From assembly GCA_964408285.1 (NCBI GenBank), contig CAYOYV010000013.1, positions 1 through 11,516 on the forward strand: a stretch of 11,516 nt of DNA, in the 5' to 3' direction. The DNA comes from an uncultured Nitrososphaerota archaeon. Its GTDB lineage: Archaea > Thermoproteota > EX4484-205 > JAAOZO01. The position numbers were made by a program, and so were the translations under genes. The notes beneath the pieces are model-generated. The model ran no database searches, was not told the origin of the DNA, and worked only from the letters and a program-made list of their open reading frames with translations. Shown here piece by piece: positions 1 to 11,516 of the stretch (within the stretch, counting starts at the first letter, position 1; each line of letters starts with the position of its first letter).

Positions 1-722
1 GCATCCACGGCTTCCTTGTGTTCATCCAAGAATTGCTTGAGAAAAAGAGCTGACCCTCCAAGGAACTTGTGATCGGGGAAGAATGACCCGATTGTTGGAC
101 TCAGTCTCGTACAGTTCCCGATATCCATGGCATAAGTCAGATAAGGTTCTATCAGGTAGGCAGAGTCTAATCTGCCGCTTAGAAGTGCTTCGTGCTGTCT
201 TTCGCTCGGCATGTAGAAGACATTCACATCGTCTAGACTCAGATTGTGCTTTCTCAGAATGAACCTTACAACCACCTCCCCAAGTCCTCCTCGACTCGTT
301 ACGCCGACATTCCTTCCTTTGAGATCCGATATGGATTCTATGCCAGAACCCTTGAGCACGACGATGTAACCCCCCTCATGCTCCTCATCTGAATGGCCCC
401 CATCGGTAGCGATCCTAATGTCGATCCCCCTCACAAAAGCGTTGACGCTCGTCGAGAAAGGAACAAAGCCAAGGTCTAAGCTGCCGGCTGCAATGGCTTC
501 CACCATTTTGGACCCTGTTTCGATTTCCACCAGCGTGACGTTCAGACCCTCATTCTTGTAGAATCCCTTCTCGTATGCTATCCAATACGGAGCACAATAT
601 GCACTATCGAAGTAACCAATGCGTAGCGATACTGGCTTCGTAGGAAATACCCTCCAATAGATGTAAGCCCCTGCTGAGAAGAAGAATAGGCATAAGACAA
701 TCGCAATCGTCCTCTTGCTCAT
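1..722 (-). CDS. ABC transporter substrate-binding protein, NitT/TauT (SsuA/THI5/NMT1-like) family; 3' end truncated by the window edge
   Basis: Not in the ORF track; translated by hand from ATG at 722: MSKRTIAIVLCLFFFSAGAYIYWRVFPTKPVSLRIGYFDSAYCAPYWIAYEKGFYKNEGLNVTLVEIETGSKMVEAIAAGSLDLG...VVLKGSGIESISDLKGRNVGV...ALLSGRLDSAYLIEPY..., open to base 1. The motifs 'LRIGY', 'A.EKGFY..EGL.V', 'I.SISDLKG..VGV' and 'G.LD....EP' are typical of this family; N-terminal hydrophobic anchor. Confidence 0.9.
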   Translation of the reverse strand, partial: MSKRTIAIVLCLFFFSAGAYIYWRVFPTKPVSLRIGYFDSAYCAPYWIAYEKGFYKNEGLNVTLVEIETGSKMVEAIAAGSLDLGFVPFSTSVNAFVRGIDIRIATDGGHSDEEHEGGYIVVLKGSGIESISDLKGRNVGVTSRGGLGEVVVRFILRKHNLSLDDVNVFYMPSERQHEALLSGRLDSAYLIEPYLTYAMDIGNCTRLSPTIGSFFPDHKFLGGSALFLKQFLDEHKEAVD

Positions 723-752
723 TTCATGAAACCAATTGACAAGGCAGCACAC

Positions 753-767
753 AATATAAGAGTTTGG
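753..767 (-). promoter_or_regulatory. Putative archaeal BRE/TATA promoter of the substrate-binding protein gene
   Basis: Minus strand reads CCAAACT-CTTATATT, ending about 30 nt upstream of ATG 722. Confidence 0.55.
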
Positions 768-932
768 AATCCTACGAAATCACCTAACCTCTCTCCGAAC
801 GTGAATCCCGCGGAAATAATATCCAAGATCCCCTATGAACAGGACCTCACGATGGGAAGTTGGGTATGAGAAAGATGAGTTCCATTGCACGGCCGAATGG
901 ATGGGCGATCACCCGATGGGCAGAACCAACCT

Positions 933-947
933 TCAAATCTTATTAAG
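933..947 (+). promoter_or_regulatory. Putative BRE/TATA promoter (leaderless) of the ECF S-component-like gene
   Basis: TCAAATC-TTATTAAG; the TATA-like box (940-947) ends 22 nt before in-frame ATG 970. Confidence 0.6.
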
Positions 948-969
948 GGTTCATCTGTCCAGCCCAACA

Positions 970-1500
970 ATGGCAGGGGGAAGATATCTAACCACCAAAG
1001 ACATTTCAGTGATAGCACTTTTCTCCGGAATCTGGGCAATCCTGAACCTCGCCATATCGCCCTTCATATGGCAAGTCACTCATCTTCCGTTCACCTGCGA
1101 TCTAATTGGATTCGCTTCCTTGATAGTAGCCATTCACATCACTAGGAAGCCAGGGATGGGGTCAGCCATCGGACTTGTGTCCACTCTTCTCACCTTGTTC
1201 TTGAGGCCGGACGCGCTCTATTTCTTCGGCTTCACAATAGGAAGCATCACATTCGATGTCGTCTCGATTGCAGTTGGATATGAGACATTCTTTGATAGGA
1301 AGGCTGTTAGCTTGCTAACAATACTAATTGTATCAGCGGCCTCCGCCACGCTCGCCGGACTAGTGATTGGAAGATTGTTCATGGCACTTGGCGACATCGT
1401 TTCGATTCTGACTTTCTCAGCTCTCCACGGAATTGGCGGCATCATGGCGGCAATCATTGGCTATCCGGTCGTAGGTGCTCTACGGAGAAAGGGAATTTGA
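970..1500 (+). CDS. ECF-transporter S-component-like integral membrane protein (about 176 aa)
   Basis: About 5-6 hydrophobic segments, N-terminal 'LTTKDISVIALFSGIWA' and an internal 'RKPG' motif as seen in S components. Start moved from 835 to ATG 970 because the first 45 codons are hydrophilic, look non-homologous and contain the TATA box. Confidence 0.7.
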   Translation: MAGGRYLTTKDISVIALFSGIWAILNLAISPFIWQVTHLPFTCDLIGFASLIVAIHITRKPGMGSAIGLVSTLLTLFLRPDALYFFGFTIGSITFDVVSIAVGYETFFDRKAVSLLTILIVSAASATLAGLVIGRLFMALGDIVSILTFSALHGIGGIMAAIIGYPVVGALRRKGI

Positions 1501-1688
1501 TCTCTGAGTCTGGCAGCGAGATGCTGGCTTGGCATGGGAAGATGCCCTTGAAAATCTGTGAAGTCTCCGGCGTATTCCGAATTGAAAGTCGCGTTACGGA
1601 ATTTTGATCCGTCGTACACACATCTACTAATGAAAGCCATGGACGAATGTCTAGTGCCGTTTGAGGGAACGTAATTGAGCTATCGCAG

Positions 1689-2858
1689 CTATTCGGTCCT
1701 TTTGACTTTCGCGATGATGAAGGGAATCACAAAAGCCACAGAAAGAATGGAGACGAAGGAAGAGATCAGGAACATCACCCAGAGCCCGAAACTATCTGAG
1801 AGCAACCCACCTAGATATGGTCCTGCAGCCATTCCCGAGGAAAAAGCTAGGCCATATAGGCCAGCAAATAGGCTTCCTCTTTTTTTTCCACCCAAGCCCG
1901 AGCTAATTGACATGCCGGAGATCGTGAATAGGGAATATGCGATTCCTCGGAGACCTTGGACCAAGACGTACATGTAAAGGTCTTTCACGATTCCGTAAAG
2001 CCAGTAAACGCCAGCGAGGAGGGTCTCCCCAATGGCGAGAACGGAGAAACCCCCGATGTGATCTGAGAGCAGACCTCCTAGATACATGGCAGGTATCTCA
2101 GCGACGGCACCTGTAGCAATGATCACACCAAGGAAAAGAGCATCTCCTCCCAAATCGGTCAATGACAACGTTAGGAAAGATGATGTTGCACCCATGCTCA
2201 ATCCAGCCAGAAACACACTGATCATGAAGGGCATCGTTCTACCCCTAGTTGTTTCAGACTCTCCTTCCTCAGATACCGCGAGATTCTGATTCGCCTTCTT
2301 CACAACATCAGATAAAGCAATGCTAACAAGGAAAGCCAGCAGTGATAGAACTGATGCGATTAGGAAAATGTTTCTCATTGCCTCCTTGGCGAAGAGGCCA
2401 GTCAGAACACATGATATCACCCAACCAGCCGATCCAAACAGCCTATATCTCGCCATAGACCTTCCCAGCTCGTCTCTTCCCGACAAATCGGCAACCATGG
2501 ATTGCGCAAGGGGCGTGAAGCCAGAGAGAAGGAAGCTGGTGGCTACGTACCATATTGACATGCTCGGGACATCGGTCGAAATAAACATCATCAGGCTTGT
2601 TGCAGTCCTCGCAAGCAAGGAAAGAGACATGACCGTTCTCCTTCTACCGATCCTATCAGCAACTGCACCGAATATGACTTGAGGTACTGAAGAGAGCAGG
2701 TTTCCGGCCGTCAAGATCATACCAATCGTACCATAAGTCAATCCCAAGGACTTCAAATAGACCCCAAAAAGCATTGAGAGTGGAGCGAAGGAAGCCCAGA
2801 CTAGACCACCCATAATTGATATGACAGCTATATCTCTTGACTTCCTACCTGAGGACAA
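1689..2858 (-). CDS. MFS transporter (12-TM, 389 aa)
   Basis: MFS motif A 'GAVADRIGRR' and the second-half repeat 'GLLSDHIG'; 'RLFGSAGW' and 'GAVAEIP' resemble LacY/NHS/PPP-like MFS members. TTG start preceded by SD-like GGGGCGG, 25 nt after the upstream stop. Confidence 0.93.
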   Translation of the reverse strand: MSSGRKSRDIAVISIMGGLVWASFAPLSMLFGVYLKSLGLTYGTIGMILTAGNLLSSVPQVIFGAVADRIGRRRTVMSLSLLARTATSLMMFISTDVPSMSIWYVATSFLLSGFTPLAQSMVADLSGRDELGRSMARYRLFGSAGWVISCVLTGLFAKEAMRNIFLIASVLSLLAFLVSIALSDVVKKANQNLAVSEEGESETTRGRTMPFMISVFLAGLSMGATSSFLTLSLTDLGGDALFLGVIIATGAVAEIPAMYLGGLLSDHIGGFSVLAIGETLLAGVYWLYGIVKDLYMYVLVQGLRGIAYSLFTISGMSISSGLGGKKRGSLFAGLYGLAFSSGMAAGPYLGGLLSDSFGLWVMFLISSFVSILSVAFVIPFIIAKVKRTE

Positions 2859-2883
2859 TCGCGCCGCCCCGATGAACGAACCA

Positions 2884-4194
2884 CTATCTCAGTTCTTCTA
2901 TCAGAGATAGACTCTGCTCAATAACCGTCTCTGCAGATCCCCTCCCCAGACGATTCCACCAAGCGGGAGTCGCTTCGTATCCCCCGCGATCGTAGCTTTC
3001 TGAAGTGGGCATATACCCGTGGTAACCATTTGCGTATGCGACCACCAGAGTTGGCTTGAAGGGCGACCTTGCCTTGATTCTCAGTCCGACTTCCACAAGT
3101 GGCTCGCCGGGTATCGCAACAAGGGCCGCATCGCCGATCCTGAGCACTTGAAGTGTGATGTCGGTCTTGTCTTCTAGACCACCTTTTTGGATCAGGCTTA
3201 GATTCTTCTTCAGATACGAGAGACCCGATTCAGCCCGCTTGATGTCTTCCTCAGAGGCATTCTGCGTCCTGAGATCCGATATGGCTTTTTCCTGATCCCT
3301 TACTAGCTCTCTTGCCTGCTCCTCGGACGGCATCACCAGCGAAAGACTAATCCTCTTTTCAACAGAACGAACCGGTGGATCATCTGTCACGCTGATTGAC
3401 TTCATCGCGTTTATTGCCGCATCGGCCACTCTTGCTCCCAATTGCTCCACATCTTCGAATGTCCCCGGGCAAGCATATCCAACGGACGTAATAGGGTTCA
3501 GATCGCCTGTCGCCCCGTTTGTGAAGAGTGAAATATGTCCGGGTCCGAACTCGTTTTCGATTCTACTTGCAACCGCCCCAGGATAGTCCGCTGAGATAAG
3601 GTAATTCTTGTCCCCGAGCACGACGCCATGGCACGCGTAATTCACTAAAGAACCGATTGCCCTACCTGAACCATTCCTTGCAATGAATACACTCACTTCG
3701 CGGTCAACGGGGCCGTCTTTTTCCCTCCGATTGAACGCGATTGAAGCTTTCGATGTGCCCCAACCCACCTTTGCATTTTGTGCACATCCCCGAGCCTCGA
3801 TTGCGACCTCAACCATTTTCTCAGGCAGCGTCTTGAAATATTCTCTGACTGAATCTGGAGAAACGGACTCACTCGGAGAGATGGCCGGATCAGAGATCAA
3901 GATTCCTTCCTGCGAGGGTCCAGAGTGCGTGTGCGTCGCGGAAATCATGATGCTGCTACCTTTCAATTTCGTTCTTCCTGCGATCTCGGATCTCACCTTT
4001 GTAACGATGTGATTGGGCACGTTCACCAAGTCATTCGCTATCAGCAGGACAGACTCTTCCCGACCTTCGACATAGAGGGCTCTCGCGTGTAGGGGATCAT
4101 GAATTCCTTCTGAGCCCTTGTACCTTGCGGCGTATCCTCCTAATCTGATCCCGATCGGAGGCGTTATGTCCGCTTTTGATACCCCAATCCTCAT
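2884..4194 (-). CDS. Neutral/alkaline non-lysosomal ceramidase-family metallo-amidohydrolase (substrate unknown)
   Basis: Motifs 'DITPP', 'G.HDPL.ARAL', 'ATHTHSGP', 'NRR', 'NYACH', 'ISADYPG', 'NGA.GD.NP', 'PGE' and 'YANGY.GY.P....Y..GGYE'. No signal peptide, so probably cytoplasmic. Confidence 0.88.
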   Translation of the reverse strand: MRIGVSKADITPPIGIRLGGYAARYKGSEGIHDPLHARALYVEGREESVLLIANDLVNVPNHIVTKVRSEIAGRTKLKGSSIMISATHTHSGPSQEGILISDPAISPSESVSPDSVREYFKTLPEKMVEVAIEARGCAQNAKVGWGTSKASIAFNRREKDGPVDREVSVFIARNGSGRAIGSLVNYACHGVVLGDKNYLISADYPGAVASRIENEFGPGHISLFTNGATGDLNPITSVGYACPGTFEDVEQLGARVADAAINAMKSISVTDDPPVRSVEKRISLSLVMPSEEQARELVRDQEKAISDLRTQNASEEDIKRAESGLSYLKKNLSLIQKGGLEDKTDITLQVLRIGDAALVAIPGEPLVEVGLRIKARSPFKPTLVVAYANGYHGYMPTSESYDRGGYEATPAWWNRLGRGSAETVIEQSLSLIEELR

Positions 4195-4212
4195 GATACC
4201 ACGCGAATCATT

Positions 4213-4242
4213 AGAATCTTATTAAAGTAATGGAAGAATCTT
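4213..4242 (-). promoter_or_regulatory. Internal TATA promoter for the ceramidase-like/MFS pair, flanked by two AGAATCTT copies
   Basis: Minus strand TTTAATAA (4226-4219) lies 24 nt upstream of ATG 4194; AGAATCTT occurs at 4213-4220 and 4235-4242. Confidence 0.55.
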
Positions 4243-4248
4243 GGCAGT

Positions 4249-5460
4249 CTAAGACCCGGGAACCAAGGTTCCAAGAATCACCTTTCTCTCAGCTCCAGTC
4301 GCGGACGGAAGGTTCGAAGTGTGCCCCATGATGAATTCATTAGCAAGTATTGCCATGTAAGCGGCCTCCCTGGCTTCTGATGGCAAACCTAGCTCATCGA
4401 AATGTCTGATTCTGGATTCTGGCATCCTTCTTGCCAACCAATTCACCATTGTAGAGTTCTTTGCTCCGCCGCCTGCGAGATAGACGACGTCCAGTGGTCC
4501 CTTTGTCCGGACGAAGTCTTCGTAGGCTCTGGCAATGCTCTCAACTGTCAGCATCGTCGCAGTGGCAATTGCGTCTTCTCGGCTTATGCCTCGCTGCATC
4601 ACGCTGTGCAAATATCGCCCCACATATCTTGCCCCGAACGATTCACGTCCGGTTGACTTGGGTGGTGGCCGGGAGAAATAGGGATCTTCCAAAAGCTCGT
4701 CGAGAAGTCCCTTGTCAACATGTCCTCGTGCCGCGATTGCACCATCAGCGTCATAGTTTGATTCACCTCTCGTATAGGAATTCACCAGCCCGTCCACGAT
4801 CATATTTCCCGGGCCGGTATCGAACGCTATGACCTCATCTTCTGAGCACTTTGGAGGTAGGTAGGCTACATTCGCGATTCCACCTATGTTCTGTATTGCT
4901 ATTCCGATTTCCTGATTCCTATATAGTATGAAATCCACATAGGGCGACAGAGGAGCACCCTCTCCCCCGGCAGCGAGATCCCTTTTTCTGAAATCACCAA
5001 TCGTCATGACACCCGTCATCTCCGCTATGACTGCAAGCTCCCCAATCTGGAGACTTGAACCAGTCTGGTCTGATCCCGATGGCTTGGGGAAATGGTAGAT
5101 TGTTTGACCATGAGAGCCAATCGCATCTATCTGATCGGTCGATAGATTGATTGAATCGGCTAGTGATCTTGAAGCTCTCGCCAACTCCTTGCCAAGAGTG
5201 AAGTTCATCGCGCACACCTCATCCAATCTAGCTGTCTCAGGATCGAAGAGGCTGAATATTCTCTCTCTTAGTGCCTTTGAATAGGGATAAGTCCGAAAAC
5301 CAAGAAGAACAGGCCGGGTGTTCGTGTAGAAACCCGCGAGCCTGAGAGCGCACGCAGTTATGCCGTCCGCCGAAGTCCCGGACATCAATCCTATCACTGT
5401 TCTGCTTTCCTTTGATGCAATCCTATCCAATTCGGCCCGAGGATCCGAGCGAGGACTCAT
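4249..5460 (-). CDS. anmK: Anhydro-N-acetylmuramic acid kinase family protein (AnmK/levoglucosan kinase family)
   Basis: All family motifs present: IGLMSGTSADG, IGSHGQT.YH, SLQIG, DFR.RD.AAGGEGAPL, NIGGIANV, AFDTGPGN, PPPKSTGRE.FG, GGGA.N, REA. Start uncertain (ATG 5481, 5469 or 5460); 5460 best fits the TATA-like CTTAATCT at 5495-5488. Confidence 0.95.
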   Translation of the reverse strand: MSPRSDPRAELDRIASKESRTVIGLMSGTSADGITACALRLAGFYTNTRPVLLGFRTYPYSKALRERIFSLFDPETARLDEVCAMNFTLGKELARASRSLADSINLSTDQIDAIGSHGQTIYHFPKPSGSDQTGSSLQIGELAVIAEMTGVMTIGDFRKRDLAAGGEGAPLSPYVDFILYRNQEIGIAIQNIGGIANVAYLPPKCSEDEVIAFDTGPGNMIVDGLVNSYTRGESNYDADGAIAARGHVDKGLLDELLEDPYFSRPPPKSTGRESFGARYVGRYLHSVMQRGISREDAIATATMLTVESIARAYEDFVRTKGPLDVVYLAGGGAKNSTMVNWLARRMPESRIRHFDELGLPSEAREAAYMAILANEFIMGHTSNLPSATGAERKVILGTLVPGS

Positions 5461-5487
5461 CTGGATCATCCGCAAGGACATGGATGC

Positions 5488-5639
5488 AGATTAAGGTATT
5501 GCTTCCGGTCACAAAGGCGATCCAATCGGACTCCATGGATCGCGCCATCGGCAATCCCTGAGCTTTTTCGCCGAGGAAGCCGGACATTCGTCCAGGCGGC
5601 ATCTGCGCGATTGGATCCTTTTCGGCAATTCTTAAAATA
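5488..5639. promoter_or_regulatory. Divergent promoter region (anmK / prenyl synthase) with mirrored elements
   Basis: Minus strand: CGATTGGATC (5528-5519)...GCAATAC-CTTAATCT. Plus strand: CGATTGGATC (5608-5617)...GCAATT-CTTAAAATA (to 5639). Confidence 0.55.
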
Positions 5640-5664
5640 CCTCAGGTTGATTCACAAGGGTGTA

Positions 5665-6675
5665 TTGTTCTCCTTTGAGGGCATTGATGATGTGAATGCC
5701 GCCATAGATTCGTTTATGGAAAAGCATCTCACATCAGAGGTCTATCCGGCATTCAGGGATGCTTTGATGTACCCGATCAAGGTTGGGGGAAAACGAATCA
5801 GACCTATTCTCGTCATGCTGTCTGCTGAAGCTGCAGGCGGGAGTGCCCAAGCAGCAATACCCGCTGCCACTGCCTTTGAGCTTGCTCATAATGGGACTCT
5901 GATCTTCGATGACATCATAGACAGAGGCGAGCTGCGAAGGGGGAACGTGAGTGCTTGGAAGAAATATGGGGAAGCGGCAGCCATCTTGATCGCCCTCCGG
6001 TATAGAGAGGCGATAGTAAGAGTTCTAAGCGAGTCGAAGCACCCCCTTGAGATTGAGAGCCTTGTCTCAAAGGTAATAGATGACGTCATAGAAGGGGAGA
6101 TGCTTGACATTTCGTTAGAGAGAGCGGGCAGAGATGAGCCGCTGTTCTCCGGATTCAGGAAGAAGGAGGTCACTGTTGATGACTATCTTTTCATGATCAG
6201 GAAGAAGACCGCATCACTATTCGAAGGTTGTTGCAGGGCCGGAGCGATCGTCGCGGATGCGCCACCCAGCACGGAGAAAGCGCTATCCACTTATGGACTG
6301 AATCTAGGCTATCTATTTCAAATCACTGATGACATCTTGGACATATTTGGCGCGGAGGAGGAATTCGGGAAAAAGATTGGAAAGGACATAATGGAACACA
6401 AGGGAGGCAACATCGTGATCCTCCTCGGGCTGCAAATGCTGAATGACGAACAAAAGCGGATGTTGGCAAGGGGTCTAGTGAAGGAATCCGTGACAGAGAA
6501 GGAAGTCACGGAGCTAATAGGCGTTCTCAGATCGGCAGGGCTTGATCGGGAGAGTCGTACATTTGCCTCTAAGTATGAGGAAGAAATGAACAAGGCCTTG
6601 AGGAGTCTTCCTGAAACCGATGCCAGATCCATGCTGGAGGCGTTGCCCGGCATTTTGCTCCAGAGGAGACATTAG
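5665..6675 (+). CDS. trans-Isoprenyl diphosphate (polyprenyl) synthase, IspA/IdsA/IspB superfamily
   Basis: GGKRIRP, FARM 'HNGTLIFDDIID....RRG', 'GEMLD', 'KKT', SARM 'FQITDDILD', 'GK.IGKD..E.K'. Start moved from 5611 to TTG 5665, which is 25 nt after the TATA box TTAAAATA (5632-5639) and follows AAGGGTG. Confidence 0.93.
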   Translation: MFSFEGIDDVNAAIDSFMEKHLTSEVYPAFRDALMYPIKVGGKRIRPILVMLSAEAAGGSAQAAIPAATAFELAHNGTLIFDDIIDRGELRRGNVSAWKKYGEAAAILIALRYREAIVRVLSESKHPLEIESLVSKVIDDVIEGEMLDISLERAGRDEPLFSGFRKKEVTVDDYLFMIRKKTASLFEGCCRAGAIVADAPPSTEKALSTYGLNLGYLFQITDDILDIFGAEEEFGKKIGKDIMEHKGGNIVILLGLQMLNDEQKRMLARGLVKESVTEKEVTELIGVLRSAGLDRESRTFASKYEEEMNKALRSLPETDARSMLEALPGILLQRRH

Positions 6676-6725
6676 GGAGGACGTTATTGGCGTCTTTCGC
6701 TCGCGCGCGCGTTTGACATCCCCCG

Positions 6726-7937
6726 TCACTTTCTGCCTGCAGCCACTATCTTTATGACATCCCTGTCCCTGAGGACATAACTCTCTGGAAGCCTCAATCC
6801 CGTTCTGACATCCATGGCGAAAATAAAGGTCCTTGCCAGTTCGCTGTGGATTCTTCTTGCCAAGGCCTCAGTCGATGAGCTCGGTGCCATAAGATAGGCA
6901 TCTGGCAATATGTTCCCATGTTTGTCAGAGTACTTCCTCTCATCAGAGACGGGATAGATGACATTCATGCCGAGTAGCTTGAAGATTGCGAAATTTATCG
7001 CAAATTGAACGCCGGTCCTCAGCCACTTCTCTATGACCTTATCAGAAACATATGAGAGAGCCATCTTTTGCCTATCGCTGAGCTTCTGCTCATTGACAAT
7101 CTCGAATTTCTCCTCTCCTGGGACATATCTTATCAACCCAGCTTTCTCCGCCCTTCGTAATGCCAATTCAGCGTCCGCTGAGCAGGGCACAATGAACCTA
7201 CTTCCCAATTTCCTCATGAGTTCAGTGTAGTTCCTCTCAGCGGAAGGCAGGTCCATCTTGTTCGCCACTATGAGGGTAGGCTTTGCCTTGGATCTTAGGA
7301 CGGAGGCGAATCTCTCCAGATCGTTGTCACTCCATCTGGAGAATTCCCTTTCCGCAAGTTCACTAGCCTCCAGCGATTCGCTTATCGTTCTTCTGTCTAT
7401 CTTTGCACCTGAAAGAACGGATTCTAGAGCGGTAGGCAGATCCAGCTTCTTAGACCTGGTCAATCGAACCACTCTCTTATTCTTCTGCTCCAAGAACTTC
7501 TTGAACCATAAAACAAGCTCCTTCTCAGTCTCATCATAGTCCCGGATGGGATCTCCCTTTCCGGGTTCACATATCTTGCCATCTTGGTCAACACTCCCGG
7601 AAGCGTCAACCACATGGAGCAGGACATCCGAGGTCATGGCAACCCTCAGGAACTGGATACCTAGTCCCCGTCCAAGGTGAGCACCTTCTATCAATCCGGG
7701 AAGATCCATTATCTGGAGAGGTATGAATCTCCAGCCCTCTATGCATGCGGAATTCTTGGGCTTGTCCTTAACGCCGAACTCCCTACACACGCAGGGAGTC
7801 TGAACGTAGGCCATCCCGTAGGCAGGTGATTTGGTTGTGAATGGATATGTGGATATTTTCGCGTTCAACAAAGTCGCGGCGTTGAAGAATGTGGTCTTGC
7901 CCACGTTTGTCTTTCCTACTATTCCTATCCTCACCAA
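6726..7937 (-). CDS. ychF: Archaeal Obg/YchF-family translation-associated GTPase with C-terminal TGS-like domain
   Basis: G1 GKTNVGKTT, G2 YPFTT, G3 DLPGL, 'GA..G.GLG..FL', G4 NKMD, archaeal insert 'PCVCREFGV..KPKNS.CI.G.RFIP', and C-terminal 'G.ILPDAYL...LA..IH.ELA..F..A.D.RT...L...Y.L...DVIKIV'. Start TTG 7937 or GTG 7934. Confidence 0.93.
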   Translation of the reverse strand: MVRIGIVGKTNVGKTTFFNAATLLNAKISTYPFTTKSPAYGMAYVQTPCVCREFGVKDKPKNSACIEGWRFIPLQIMDLPGLIEGAHLGRGLGIQFLRVAMTSDVLLHVVDASGSVDQDGKICEPGKGDPIRDYDETEKELVLWFKKFLEQKNKRVVRLTRSKKLDLPTALESVLSGAKIDRRTISESLEASELAEREFSRWSDNDLERFASVLRSKAKPTLIVANKMDLPSAERNYTELMRKLGSRFIVPCSADAELALRRAEKAGLIRYVPGEEKFEIVNEQKLSDRQKMALSYVSDKVIEKWLRTGVQFAINFAIFKLLGMNVIYPVSDERKYSDKHGNILPDAYLMAPSSSTEALARRIHSELARTFIFAMDVRTGLRLPESYVLRDRDVIKIVAAGRK

Positions 7938-7963
7938 ATTCCTGTTAAGTATATCTTTCGATG

Positions 7964-7972
7964 AATATAAAG
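7964..7972 (-). promoter_or_regulatory. Putative TATA box of the GTPase gene
   Basis: Minus strand CTTTATATT, ending 26 nt upstream of TTG 7937. Confidence 0.6.
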
Positions 7973-8035
7973 CAACAGCTTCCAGTAATCATATTCTCCA
8001 TTCACTCAAACAGGAGCAATAGATGATGGCATTTG

Positions 8036-8050
8036 GCTAAGCTTATTAGC
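8036..8050 (+). promoter_or_regulatory. Putative TATA box of the UroD-like gene, embedded in a GCTAA-N5-TTAGC inverted repeat
   Basis: GCTAAGCTTATTAGC; TTATTAGC (8043-8050) ends 23 nt before ATG 8074. Confidence 0.5.
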
Positions 8051-8073
8051 ACGACATGCGCTGGACTGGTACG

Positions 8074-9150
8074 ATGAACTCAAGGGAGAGATTCAAGGCA
8101 GTGATGAACTACCAATCAGTCGATAGGAAACCCTTCTATGAGTGGCTTGGATTTTGGGCAGAGACTGTAAACAGATGGTACGGAGAAGGCTTGCCAATAG
8201 GGATGAGCATTTGGGACTATTTTGATTTCGATGAAAGAGAAAATGTTCCGATAGATCTTGGGCCAATACCGAGATTCATCCCGAGAGTTGTTGAGGAAGA
8301 CAGCAGATACAAAGTAACAATAGACGATCACGGGACCAAGGCCAAAGCCCTGAAAACAGGGGTTTCAATGCCCGCCTACATAGACTTCCCCGTCAAGGGA
8401 AGAAGTGAATGGGAGCAGATCAAGAAGCGATACGATCCCTCCGATAAGAGGAGATACCCGATGACATGGAGCAAGGAATTGATAGACTACTATCAGAGCC
8501 TCGATAAGCCAGTTGGGATTGGCCTTATCGGATTCTTCGGAGAAACTCGGCGTTGGATGGGACTTGAAACATTGCTCAGATCTTTCCACAAGGATCCCGG
8601 CCTAATTAGAGATATGATGGATTTCTGGACTGATTTTCAGATAGAAGCCTTGTCAGAAGCTGTTGAGTCGGTGGAGATAGACTATGCCACTATATGGGAA
8701 GACATGGCCTACGTGAATGGTCCGTTGATATCGCCGAGATTCTTCAGGGAATTCATGGTGCCACCGTACAGGAAGACGACGGATTTCCTTCGGAAGAACG
8801 GGATCAACATCATAATGGTAGATACTGATGGAGACCACAATCTTCTGACACCGTTTTTCATTGAAGGAGGTGTCAACTGCCTCTATCCATTAGAGGTCCA
8901 GTCGCACATGGACGCGATAAGCATGAGGAAGAAATATGGAAGGGAATTGCGGCTCATAGCTAATGTGGACAAGAAGGCATTGGCGTCAGGACCCGAGTCA
9001 GCTGCGAAGGAGATCGAACGCATAAGACCCCTAATTGAGGAGGGCGGCTTCATTGCGAGCGTCGATCATGCAGTGCCATCGGACGTCTCCTTCGTGAATT
9101 ACACTTACTATGTGGATCTCTTGAGGAAGGAAGTTGGGGTCACTTCTTAA
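8074..9150 (+). CDS. Uroporphyrinogen decarboxylase (URO-D)/MtaA-CmuA superfamily protein, function unknown
   Basis: Typical N-terminus 'MNSRERF.A.M.YQ.VDR.P', plus 'R.WMGLE.LL', 'EDMAY..GPLISP..FREF..P.Y', 'DTDG', 'P.E', 'GGFI...DH.VP.DV...NY'. ATG 8074 preferred over 8056 because of the family N-terminus and TATA spacing. Lacks the HemE RQAGR motif. Confidence 0.88.
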   Translation: MNSRERFKAVMNYQSVDRKPFYEWLGFWAETVNRWYGEGLPIGMSIWDYFDFDERENVPIDLGPIPRFIPRVVEEDSRYKVTIDDHGTKAKALKTGVSMPAYIDFPVKGRSEWEQIKKRYDPSDKRRYPMTWSKELIDYYQSLDKPVGIGLIGFFGETRRWMGLETLLRSFHKDPGLIRDMMDFWTDFQIEALSEAVESVEIDYATIWEDMAYVNGPLISPRFFREFMVPPYRKTTDFLRKNGINIIMVDTDGDHNLLTPFFIEGGVNCLYPLEVQSHMDAISMRKKYGRELRLIANVDKKALASGPESAAKEIERIRPLIEEGGFIASVDHAVPSDVSFVNYTYYVDLLRKEVGVTS

Positions 9151-9214
9151 TCCTTCGAGCCCAGTTGAAGAAGAATCTGGAAGACATATACGTAGCTCCC
9201 GCTTAATCCTGAGG

Positions 9215-9961
9215 CTAGATTCCGAATAGCTTTTTCGCATTCGTATAGAATATCGCTTCCTTTGCTTCTTCAGATATCTCCGCTTCTGTTACCATGCCCA
9301 CAGCGAAATCAGGGGCTATGAGAGTCATATCGCTGCCGAATAATATTCTATCACAGCCCATCGCATCTACGGCTTCCTTTATTCTGTCCTTGTGCAGATC
9401 GCTCCCACATATTTCTAGGTAGACATTGTCTAATTTCCTTGCCGCTCCGATTGCAGCCCTCCAACCCTGACCATTGAGTCCGTCTCCTCCCATGTGGCCC
9501 ATGATTACGAAAAGGTCTGGGAAAGTCTCAGCGACTGCTGAGCTGGCCCTAACCCCCTGTTCCCCCCAGGTGTGTAGGAGGACAACCCTCCTTTTCTTCC
9601 TAGCTAAGTCGAGAAGATGAATGTTCGTCTCGCATGAGACCGGTTGGGCACTGTAATCCGGATGGATCTTCATGCCGAGGAATTTGGGATTCGAGAGGCA
9701 TTCCAAGATCATTTTCTCAGATAGCTCCGGATAGTTTGGATTCAGCACAACGTAGCCATAATAGTCGGGATTCATGTCGATGAGAAAGCCCAGCGCCCTG
9801 TTGCCCTCAACGAGGTCATAGACTATTGCGAGAGTTGAGGAGAATATCACTTTTTCAATCTTGTATTTGGCCGCGATTCTCATGATATCGTGCTCCTTTG
9901 TGGCCCTTATCGGAAAAAACCATTCGCCATAATGCGCGTGAGCATCAATGATTCTCATCAC
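9215..9961 (-). CDS. Amidohydrolase_2-family TIM-barrel metallohydrolase (metal ligands intact)
   Basis: 'IIDAHAH', 'GMKIHP', 'LLHT', 'MGHMG', 'RILFGSD', 'IFYTNAKKLF'. Start (GTG 9961 or ATG 9958) overlaps the upstream TGA; SD GGTGA at 9973-9969. Confidence 0.9.
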   Translation of the reverse strand: MMRIIDAHAHYGEWFFPIRATKEHDIMRIAAKYKIEKVIFSSTLAIVYDLVEGNRALGFLIDMNPDYYGYVVLNPNYPELSEKMILECLSNPKFLGMKIHPDYSAQPVSCETNIHLLDLARKKRRVVLLHTWGEQGVRASSAVAETFPDLFVIMGHMGGDGLNGQGWRAAIGAARKLDNVYLEICGSDLHKDRIKEAVDAMGCDRILFGSDMTLIAPDFAVGMVTEAEISEEAKEAIFYTNAKKLFGI

Positions 9962-10686
9962 TCGAATTTCACCAACCTCCGGATATTACCCGCGAATATG
10001 AGCTCCTTGTCTGGCTGTGATATGTCAGAGTTCATGACCGACAAGAACGGACTCAGGAAGTACGTCAGTGGGGAATTCGAGCCGAACAATAGCCTCTCTG
10101 CTCCCACTTCCTTGCAGAGGACCTCTATGCCATCAGGGCTATCTATAAGGTGAGTTTCGAGAAAGATTCTCTCATTTGCCCTCATTATCGCGATTGCCTC
10201 ACTCATCGTCCAGTATCCTATCGAAGTCAGGATCAGATTGATTGGAAGCCCTGTGGCCAAGTCCGCTATCTTGGTGGCCGCGCCGTAAGTTTGGGCAGTG
10301 ATCATCAGAGGCAGTCCCACTCCCGCAATCTCCCTCATCAGCACCCTTAGAGGCGCAAAGTCCATTGGCCAACCTTGGTATTCGGGAAAGAGCCTTAGCA
10401 TCTTGAACGAAGATCTCCTTAGGTCATCCACCTCGCTGTCATTCCCGAAGTATTTCCTTAGATCGATCGTGGCAACTGGCACTAGTGTCTCGTTTTTTGC
10501 ACAGACTGCAATCGTTTCATTGTTGCCTTCTCTGTAATCATAGAATATGCCCTTCATCGAAAGCGTAAGTGCCCTCTCAACTGTGTTCTTCTTGAGAAGG
10601 GAAACTAGGAATTCTGGTGAGGCGTTGACATTCCTCTTTGGATATGTCCCAAAGAAGGTGTTCGCGTCTATCACACTGAGTGGCAA
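9958..10686 (-). CDS. Amidohydrolase_2-fold protein with degenerate active site (probable non-catalytic subunit)
   Basis: Same fold landmarks ('VIDANT..G', 'RLFP..QGW', 'GAERLLFGSN.P', 'I...DKELIF.GN..RL') but no HxH, K, H, H or D ligands. TTG start with SD GGGAGTGA (10700-10693); overlaps the upstream gene by 16 nt. Confidence 0.85.
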   Translation of the reverse strand: MPLSVIDANTFFGTYPKRNVNASPEFLVSLLKKNTVERALTLSMKGIFYDYREGNNETIAVCAKNETLVPVATIDLRKYFGNDSEVDDLRRSSFKMLRLFPEYQGWPMDFAPLRVLMREIAGVGLPLMITAQTYGAATKIADLATGLPINLILTSIGYWTMSEAIAIMRANERIFLETHLIDSPDGIEVLCKEVGAERLLFGSNSPLTYFLSPFLSVMNSDISQPDKELIFAGNIRRLVKFE

Positions 10687-11516
10687 GCTGACTCACTCCC
10701 TGCTTGTTTGGAATAGAAGGTCGCAACCTTCTTTGTCGCTCGTGCAATGTCTTCTACGTCTGAGTCTTCATAGAACTCGTTTATGGGTAGGGTCAGCAAT
10801 TCCTTAAGTATGCCCTCTGCATTGGGGCAATCCCCCTCTTTATATTCAATCTCCTTGCCATAGAACTTGCAGTCAAAGGGGCAATGAGAATTCCCATAGG
10901 TTCTCTTTTCCTTCAGAATCGGAAAGAGATATAGTGGCTTCTTTATGTATCCACTGCTACAGGGTATCCCCTCGGCCGCCAAAGCCTCCGCGAATTCCTG
11001 CGGCGAGGCCTTGACGAATGACTTGTCCAATGTGAATGGATATAGCCAATAGGAGTGCTTGCTCCCTTCAGTGATGAAGGGAGGAGAAACGCTCTTCACT
11101 TCCTCCAATGATTTGGTCAGAAGCTCTGCGGCATGCCTCCTTCTTTCCACGATGCTCTTGACCTTTCTGAGTTGTGCGAGGCCGACAGCACCTTGGAGTT
11201 CTGTCATCCTGTAGTTCATCGAAAGGAAGAGGTAGCCCCTTTGTTCCCATCCTCCTCCCCTGGGCCAGGCCTTGTCAGAGAACAACCTTGCTCTTTCGGC
11301 GAGGCCAGAGTCGTTCGTAATGGTCACACCACCATCTCCGGCTGTCATCTGCTTTGATTGCTGGAGGCTAAAACAGCCCATGTCACCCATGGTGCCTGCC
11401 AACTTGCCCTTGAACTCTGCGAGGTGAGCTTGCGCCGCATCCTCTATTAGCCATATGTTGCGTTCTTTACAGATCTCACGAAGTTCTTCCATGTTGCCAA
11501 TTCCCCCGAATAAATG
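10671..11516 (-). CDS. DegT/DnrJ/EryC1/StrS-family PLP-dependent aminotransferase; 5' end truncated by the window edge
   Basis: The frame is open to 11516 (HLFGGIGNMEEL...), so the tracked Met at 11492 is internal. Motifs 'HLFG', 'IEDAAQAH', 'FSLQQSKQMTAGDGG' (PLP lysine), 'NYRMTELQGAVG.AQL', 'L.AEGI', 'CPNAE'. Confidence 0.95.
   Translation of the reverse strand, partial: HLFGGIGNMEELREICKERNIWLIEDAAQAHLAEFKGKLAGTMGDMGCFSLQQSKQMTAGDGGVTITNDSGLAERARLFSDKAWPRGGGWEQRGYLFLSMNYRMTELQGAVGLAQLRKVKSIVERRRHAAELLTKSLEEVKSVSPPFITEGSKHSYWLYPFTLDKSFVKASPQEFAEALAAEGIPCSSGYIKKPLYLFPILKEKRTYGNSHCPFDCKFYGKEIEYKEGDCPNAEGILKELLTLPINEFYEDSDVEDIARATKKVATFYSKQAGSESACHSV

Follow-up and report, generated by a model that had tools for sequence, protein, structure and literature searches.

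Probable functional separation of an archaeal anmK gene from the ceramidase-fold hydrolase and transporter genes beside it

The stretch of DNA analysed here, called the window, comprises bases 1-11516 of a 46.5-kb contig, itself from a 1.82-Mb, 46-contig metagenome-assembled genome (MAG) of an uncultured archaeon. Our subject is a set of three consecutive genes on its minus strand: anmK (4249..5481), which encodes a 410-amino-acid (aa) AnmK-family anhydro-sugar kinase; CER (2884..4194), for a 436-aa zinc hydrolase with the catalytic fold of neutral ceramidases; and a gene with a TTG start (1689..2858) for a 389-aa MFS carrier. A sequence-only reading of this DNA had joined the three into one module for scavenging peptidoglycan or anhydro sugars without murQ or nagA. 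We believe, with a probability of roughly 60%, that they are instead two functionally separate units lying side by side, namely the anmK gene of a dispersed canonical muramic-acid pathway and an autonomous CER-MFS cassette.

In our proposal, anmK would be a single gene whose product serves as the entry kinase for anhydro-N-acetylmuramic acid (anhydro-MurNAc) in a complete but dispersed canonical pathway. An extracellular Amidase_2 protein would strip peptides, NamZ, NagZ and GH84 enzymes would release monosaccharides, AnmK or a MurK-like kinase would make MurNAc-6-P, and MurQ, NagA and NagB would convert MurNAc-6-P to fructose-6-P. CER and MFS would form a two-gene cassette, probably with its own promoter, that combines a cytoplasmic zinc amidase with a sugar-type MFS carrier. 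Judging by conserved gene neighbourhood, this cassette would belong with a DegT aminotransferase gene and a pair of Amidohydro_2 genes 5-7 kb upstream, and we infer that its most likely role is to import an N-acyl amino sugar, or a similar compound, and to remove the N-acyl group. The gene identities, the presence of the pathway genes and the linkage counts are observed; substrates, the direction of transport and the transcript structure are deduced from them.

The first part of this proposal draws on the genome that carries the window (G000), in which pathway genes were sought by family profile searches. MurQ is encoded at C1:267025-267894 (373.6 bits; cut-off 302), with the gene for a BadF/BcrAD-type (MurK/NagK-like) kinase 18 nucleotides (nt) upstream (PF01869, 70.1 bits versus 31.5) and that for a GH84 N-acetylglucosaminidase 4 kb away (PF07555, 356.9 versus 25). 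Contig C4 carries NagA (299; cut-off 225.65), NagB (315.8; cut-off 236.9) and the exo-muramidase NamZ (302.5 versus 26.9), and GH3 proteins are encoded on C1 (NagZ-type, 210.4; cut-off 207) and on C8 (a second GH3, PF00933, 244.2 versus 27). A 297-aa Amidase_2 protein encoded on C5 (106.6 versus 26) has hydrophobic segments at its N- and C-terminal ends and is probably displayed outside the cell. With MurQ, NagA and the others above their cut-offs, the genome has no missing etherase or deacetylase.

These findings change how the sequence-only reading can be used. Its statement that murQ and nagA are lacking is true only of the immediate neighbourhood, because murQ, nagA, nagB and nagZ were all found and the canonical pathway exists outside the window. 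The missing amide-cleaving step that it assigned to CER is likewise not supported, as NagA covers the deacetylase step and a beta-lactamase-fold protein coupled to NagZ may cover an amidase step. On contig C1 (locus L041, 910-3577), the gene for that protein ends 4 nt before the NagZ-type GH3 gene, an arrangement that we take to resemble the amiE-nagZ pair of Bacillus. The protein is without a signal peptide, has an SxxK motif and finds its best NCBIfam match in PBP4B (122.7 bits, below the cut-off), and it could be a cytoplasmic MurNAc-peptide amidase. What stands is the broader suggestion that the archaeon has the means to scavenge sugars from bacterial walls, which the matches to MurQ, NagA, NagB, NagZ, NamZ and Amidase_2, together with the GH84 and kinase genes beside murQ, bear out. 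The Amidase_2 gene is divergent from one for a GHL10-type glycosidase-like protein with an N-terminal hydrophobic segment (contig C5; L045, 9163-11445), and the two proteins may be an extracellular wall-degrading pair.

The kinase fits this pathway well. It matches PF03702 at E 1.8e-98 (330.5 bits; cut-off 24) and passes the NCBIfam AnmK equivalog NF007148 (460.8 bits; cut-off 387), and its in-frame ATG at 5460, which was the start chosen previously, is as possible a start as 5481. Both the GxxSGTSxDG ATP motif and the aspartate of FDTGPG, which we take to be the general base, are present. The segments GLMSGTSADG and AFDTGPG line up with their counterparts in the solved levoglucosan kinase (LGK), where the aspartate is residue 212 of the chain as counted from the alignment. 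A 2023 paper on AnmK gives the catalytic aspartate, and its main text is without sugar-contact residues.

The best solved relatives of the kinase are the Lipomyces levoglucosan kinases at 267.7 bits (Lipomyces starkeyi, PDB 4zxz and 4yh5), ahead of bacterial AnmK structures at 215 and 197 bits. That ranking speaks for a kinase whose substrate is not anhydro-MurNAc but another sugar of the 1,6-anhydro type, for example levoglucosan or anhydro-GlcNAc. We consider this improbable, however, given the score against the AnmK equivalog and the company that the gene keeps. MurQ, the etherase upstream of which AnmK enzymes work, is encoded in the kinase's own genome and in 23 of the 27 genomes that have the kinase in a wider sample of the phylum. 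Five of those genomes place the kinase ortholog 3-8 kb from MurQ, and two annotated clusters add NagZ and NamZ. Because the kinase keeps company with canonical muramic-acid genes (MurQ, NagZ and NamZ), anhydro-MurNAc is the favoured substrate despite the closer structural match to the L. starkeyi enzyme. In our view anmK is nothing out of the ordinary within a canonical pathway; its host happens to be an archaeon, which is ecologically interesting in itself.

That wider sample comprised 301 genomes of the phylum, G000 included, and was scored at E-values of 1e-20 or better for CER-like proteins, 1e-10 or better for AnmK and 1e-40 or better for MurQ. CER-like genes were present in 54 of the genomes, AnmK in 27 and MurQ in 32. 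All but one of the MurQ matches (31) were over the cut-off; the other (G113:C164:12850-13566) contains one in-frame TGA, possibly because the gene is broken or the sequence is in error. The genomes with AnmK and without MurQ were G095 and three whose kinase is only 36-39% identical. Where AnmK and MurQ are close (G271, G080, G205, G265 and G277), the distance is 2.9-7.8 kb and the AnmK orthologs are 42-48% identical. The clusters annotated in G271 and G205 consist of AnmK, NagZ and a NamZ-MurQ-NagK/MurK-like kinase group, with no CER in either. In both (L028, G271:C17:11751-28923, at 7989-13938; L029, G205:C112, at 6055-13594), the NagZ-type GH3 gene is divergent from anmK and the NamZ-MurQ-kinase genes are on the opposite strand. 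Each is a compact set of genes for muramic-acid catabolism, bacterial in type and found here in archaea of other families within the phylum.

Linkage of anmK to CER is a different matter. The two genes are adjacent in only 1 of the 27 AnmK genomes, which is G000 itself, and in none of 75 bacterial and archaeal CER loci that we gathered. Of 38 metagenome loci, many of which are short enough that absence of anmK from them means less than the count implies, one (L135) has anmK upstream of CER; being 98-100% identical to the window, it comes from the same population and is no independent evidence. The remaining genomes with both genes hold them on different contigs or far apart, aside from one sister genus considered below. 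Moreover, CER orthologs of 41-42% identity exist in four genomes (G081, G097, G105 and G129; completeness 80-90%) in which our searches found no AnmK and no MurQ, and four others (G031, G265, G277 and G297) have AnmK and MurQ and no CER-like gene. The juxtaposition of anmK and CER is real but lineage-specific. As relatives do not share the linkage and the genome encodes the whole canonical pathway at other places, the idea of a recurrent anmK-CER-MFS module is not supported, and we would abandon the specific claim that anmK and the ceramidase-like gene form a non-canonical pathway.

By comparison, CER and MFS stay together more often. All five genomes of the window's taxonomic family that have a CER ortholog (G000, G015, G047, G063 and G111) hold MFS directly after CER, and the two are also adjacent in 11 of the 38 metagenome loci and also locus L106, with gaps of roughly 10-70 nt over all adjacent pairs. 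What precedes the pair varies. Some loci have PmbA (after TldD) there and others a hydrolase of the isochorismatase family; L136 and L137 have an ABC ATPase gene in divergent orientation, and in these two CER-MFS must have its own promoter. The window offers a candidate for such a promoter in the 54-nt spacer between anmK and CER (4195..4248), where a TATA-like TTTAATAA (4226-4219) precedes the CER ATG by 32-25 nt. In the upstream spacers of 926 G000 genes, all of them 50 nt or longer, TTTAWA hexamers are most concentrated from -44 to -27 relative to the start codon, and the placement of the octamer is therefore right for a CER promoter, although this is suggestive only. The sequence-only reading had spoken of archaeal promoters in this DNA, to which this motif, a single one, lends weak support. 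Genus g4 departs from the pattern, as seven of its genomes carry CER and MFS orthologs on different contigs and four carry an MFS ortholog without a CER ortholog. The MFS neighbours there (thermosome, phosphoribosyltransferase and ABC ATPases) are uninformative on the substrate of the carrier.

Several archaeal relatives have CER-MFS downstream of TldD-PmbA metallopeptidase genes (L017 at 4777-10194, L018, L023, L106, L138, L140 and L146), and among them an isochorismatase-family hydrolase gene sometimes lies directly upstream of CER.

The MFS protein scores 132 bits against MFS_1 and 122 bits against MFS_1_like. Its best NCBIfam matches are weak (Tet, 46.5 bits; SetA-type sugar efflux, 43.7; HcaT, 41.4), and the AmpG family is not among its NCBIfam matches at E 0.01 or better.

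Given these observations, it seems appropriate to weigh the single-operon explanation, in which the MFS carrier imports wall fragments, CER acts as a MurNAc-L-Ala amidase or N-deacetylase, and AnmK phosphorylates anhydro-MurNAc. A number of points favour it and weigh against our division into two units. The three genes share a strand, and the open reading frame list confirms the tight gaps of 54 nt between anmK and CER and 25 nt between CER and MFS (2859-2883); a 54-nt spacer would permit read-through from anmK, and our promoter argument is one TATA-like octamer. CER has an intact zinc-amidase site and no evident signal peptide. The genome has only one Amidase_2 protein, apparently extracellular, and a genome-wide search found no AmpG-type permease (TIGR00901; best match 14.2 bits, on another contig than the window's), such that neither a cytoplasmic muropeptide amidase nor a muropeptide importer is firmly assigned. 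A CER-like gene is present in 23 of the 27 AnmK genomes, which is weak evidence because the genomes are related. The sister genus (G047 and G063) has CER and anmK about 10-11 kb apart on one contig, so that the neighbourhood is loosely kept within the family. Finally, bacterial CER genes lie with NagA-like, NagB-like and SIS genes, contexts that also fit a muramyl-type amino-sugar substrate. Nevertheless, we think a single operon unlikely. The adjacency occurs in one AnmK genome and one near-identical metagenome contig, CER and the AnmK-MurQ genes each occur without the other, the annotated archaeal AnmK/NagZ/NamZ/MurQ clusters have no CER, and NagA and the NagZ-coupled beta-lactamase-fold protein already cover the steps that CER was meant to supply.

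We turn next to CER itself and its relatives. CER matches PF04734, the neutral ceramidase N-terminal domain, at 91.9 bits (cut-off 32.1), and in an atlas of protein clusters it matches 'ceramidase N-terminal domain' clusters only. Its family profile finds neutral ceramidases (2zws, with E 5e-38; 4wgk) and nothing else in the PDB. An AlphaFold2 model (pLDDT 85, pTM 0.88) aligned by Foldseek gave TM scores of 0.73-0.75 to 2zws, 2zxc and 4wgk at 18-19% identity, with no other credible hit. Seven residues (H88, H90, R156, H189, E364, Y394 and Y406) do not vary among 28 diverse proteins of the family and align in order with H97, H99, R160, H204, E411, Y448 and Y460 of 2zws, which we take to be zinc ligands and catalytic residues. 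The protein begins at once with conserved core (MRIGVSKADITPP), without a hydrophobic leader. CER is thus predicted to be an intact zinc amidase and is probably cytoplasmic.

The same evidence bears on whether CER could be a true lipid N-acyl amidase, either of ceramidase type or with N-acyl amino acids or lipopeptides as substrates, with MFS exporting or importing a lipid-derived product. The neutral ceramidase fold and catalytic residues are what this explanation would predict, some relatives have genes for TldD/PmbA peptidases or for a hydrolase of isochorismatase type ahead of the pair, and the weak MFS matches include efflux types. The match ends with the catalytic domain, however, for CER shares that domain's fold and the seven aligned residues with the neutral ceramidases of P. 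aeruginosa (PDB 2zws/2zxc) and human (ASAH2, 4wgk), whereas its 436 aa compare with 630-670 in the solved ceramidases. No Pfam match to the ceramidase C-terminal domain was found in it, and against the whole-protein ceramidase equivalog NF041649 it scores 51.7 bits where the cut-off is 1200. The recurrent neighbours of CER genes across phyla are moreover of sugar type and not of lipid type (DegT, NagA-like, SIS, sugar ABC, ROK, GFO/IDH/MocA and GH38), and we regard a lipid substrate as quite unlikely.

The neighbours were surveyed by scanning species-representative genomes from a 15-sequence CER alignment, which gave at least 600 relatives. From these we kept the 75 loci mentioned above, drawn from Acidobacteriota, Planctomycetota, Chloroflexota, Bacillota, Armatimonadota, other bacteria and Bathyarchaeia. 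A tblastn search within 7 kb of CER, with proteins of the window, plus a few taken from related loci, as queries, found AnmK, MurQ and NamZ in 0 of the 75 loci each and a window-type MFS in 2. DegT aminotransferases were found in 18 loci by this search and in 19 by hidden Markov model (HMM), NagA-like proteins in 8 and GFO/IDH/MocA proteins in 7. When CER's neighbours were clustered, three genes to either side, DegT was the commonest neighbour other than a second CER paralogue (24 loci), with 15 loci and 13 genes directly adjacent to CER; NagA-like Amidohydro_1 followed with 8, and ABC permeases and SIS_2 with 7 each. The genome carries 5 DegT genes in its 1.82 Mb, and by a rough estimate a random 14-kb stretch would contain one about 4% of the time, versus 25% of CER loci. 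Amidohydro_2 proteins were found by HMM in 4 of the 75 loci (L062, L077, L097 and L098), as pairs in three (L062, L077 and L098). The association with DegT aminotransferases is thus the best-supported one for the CER family, with Amidohydro_2 proteins joining less often.

Individual loci illustrate these associations. A Bacillota locus reads CER, NagA-like, NagB-like, SIS_2, Amidohydro_2, Amidohydro_2 and a sugar-binding protein; one from Anaerolineae reads ROK, DegT, CER, YdjC, an ABC system, Amidohydro_2 and Amidohydro_2; and an archaeal one reads SIS, MFS, CER, DegT and then TldD-PmbA. Tandem CER paralogues are frequent in bacteria (24/75 loci), and the metagenome locus L155 has four CER-like matches in about 7.5 kb.

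The window contains these partners on the same strand as CER. The Amidohydro_2 pair spans 9215-10686, where protein a (9215..9961, 248 aa; PF04909, 101 bits) and protein b (9958..10686, 242 aa; 30.7 bits) overlap by 4 nt, and the 3' part of a DegT/DnrJ/EryC1 aminotransferase gene follows at 10671..11516 (PF01041, 172 bits). In the Bacillota locus L077, a gene beside CER encodes a homologue of protein a (41% identity); protein a is a likely functional partner of CER. We considered whether DegT might be a broken gene or pseudogene and rejected this, as its two open reading frame pieces are an assembly effect of a 100-N scaffold gap (contig 11517-11616) that begins one base past the window, with the N-terminal part beyond it. 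A DegT gene with an Amidohydro_2 pair occurs three times in G000: at C13 8056-12112, on C3 (L127, 4853-12504) and on C2 (L128, 6602-10660). URO-D/MtaA-like genes flank the first two of these clusters, that of the window lying at 8056..9150 on the plus strand (PF01208, 50 bits), and the C2 cluster includes a GFO/IDH/MocA gene. Of the other two CER paralogues of G000, one (on C10) is beside an Amidohydro_2 gene and the other is 10 kb from the C3 cluster.

From this distribution we can sketch a tentative route, one that we hold as possible and still doubtful. Bacteria and archaea would widely share a new route that breaks down an N-acylated amino sugar or a compound resembling an aminocyclitol, and CER would be its N-deacylase. 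The DegT protein would then remove the freed amine, the Amidohydro_2 pair (and in some lineages GFO/IDH/MocA dehydrogenases) would process the carbon skeleton, and import would be by MFS or by a sugar ABC system. The archaeon studied here would have three paralogous versions of the route (C13, C3 and C10).

CER-like genes also lie beside genes for a GH38 alpha-mannosidase and a GFO/IDH/MocA protein in genus g4 (L009-L015, L130-L134, L147 and L148) and at the C10 paralogue of G000 (L038), and a DUF5107-TPR protein gene also adjoins the CER-like gene in g4. These neighbours are hints of a CER-like role in glycan breakdown.

The rest of the window can be described briefly. A polyprenyl diphosphate synthase gene (5611..6675, plus strand; PF00348, 198.6 bits) is divergent from anmK, as it is in G015 also, and a YchF-related GTPase gene (6726..7937, minus strand; NF007171, 478 bits versus cut-off 387) lies between anmK and the DegT/Amidohydro_2 genes. 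Both are housekeeping genes, and the synthase gene stands outside both units. Adjoining MFS is a plus-strand gene (835-1500) for a 221-aa membrane protein with a weak match to ECF S-components. The end of the metagenome contig L149 carries a fragment 67% identical to the start of that membrane protein, and the CER and MFS proteins of L149 are 73% and 65% identical to those of the window.

The claim that this DNA is archaeal held up when the taxonomy of the contig was checked, and so did the family assignments of the three proteins, which the profile searches confirmed. The contig is archaeal and comes from a Thermoproteota/Bathyarchaeia-type MAG of 93.7% completeness and 2.6% contamination. 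It encodes an archaeal flap endonuclease (TIGR03674, 391 bits; cut-off 352) in addition to the YchF-related GTPase, and the closest named CER homologues come from MAGs whose source names are Thermoproteota or Bathyarchaeota. MtaB/corrinoid genes are on the same contig. The assembly yielded no 16S rRNA gene, and the taxonomy draws on protein markers and source names.

Literature searches found no paper that describes a muramic-acid pathway (AnmK or MurQ) in archaea and nothing relevant on ceramidase/DegT clusters or short ceramidases. The text of a 2025 review of Bathyarchaeia carbon metabolism does not contain 'cell wall', 'muram', 'murein' or 'amino sugar', and a 2026 paper refers to Bathyarchaeia carbohydrate esterases 'related to peptidoglycan degradation'. 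Two findings seem to us of interest. One is that a full muramic-acid pathway of bacterial type occurs in Bathyarchaeia, and the other is the uncharacterised module of CER, DegT and Amidohydro_2 genes. If the complete NamZ/NagZ/AnmK/MurK/MurQ/NagA/NagB route is real, Bathyarchaeia, which are among the most abundant sediment archaea, become candidate consumers of bacterial peptidoglycan (necromass) in anoxic sediments. For the short ceramidase-fold family, with its 600 or more relatives and no assigned function, the linkage to DegT and Amidohydro_2 genes provides a starting point for a substrate search.

Of the known systems, the peptidoglycan recycling of Gram-negative bacteria such as E. coli and P. 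aeruginosa (AmpG, AmpD, NagZ, AnmK, MurQ, NagA and NagB) shares AnmK, MurQ, NagA, NagB and a NagZ-type GH3 with the archaeon, all above their cut-offs. The resemblance does not extend to purpose or layout. The archaeal host makes no murein, and the pathway would therefore serve scavenging and not recycling; its genes are dispersed; no counterpart of AmpG was found; and its sole Amidase_2 protein looks extracellular, whereas AmpD is cytoplasmic. A parallel may also be drawn with the way in which Bacillus subtilis and Tannerella forsythia scavenge MurNAc (NamZ, NagZ, AmiE, MurK and MurQ). The archaeon differs from these bacteria in that AnmK is extra and that no phosphotransferase system or known MurNAc transporter was identified in it. 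The shared features are these: NamZ is present, a BadF/BcrAD-type kinase gene likewise stands directly upstream of murQ, a beta-lactamase-fold protein is likewise coupled to a NagZ-type GH3, and related archaea keep NagZ beside a NamZ-MurQ-kinase cluster.

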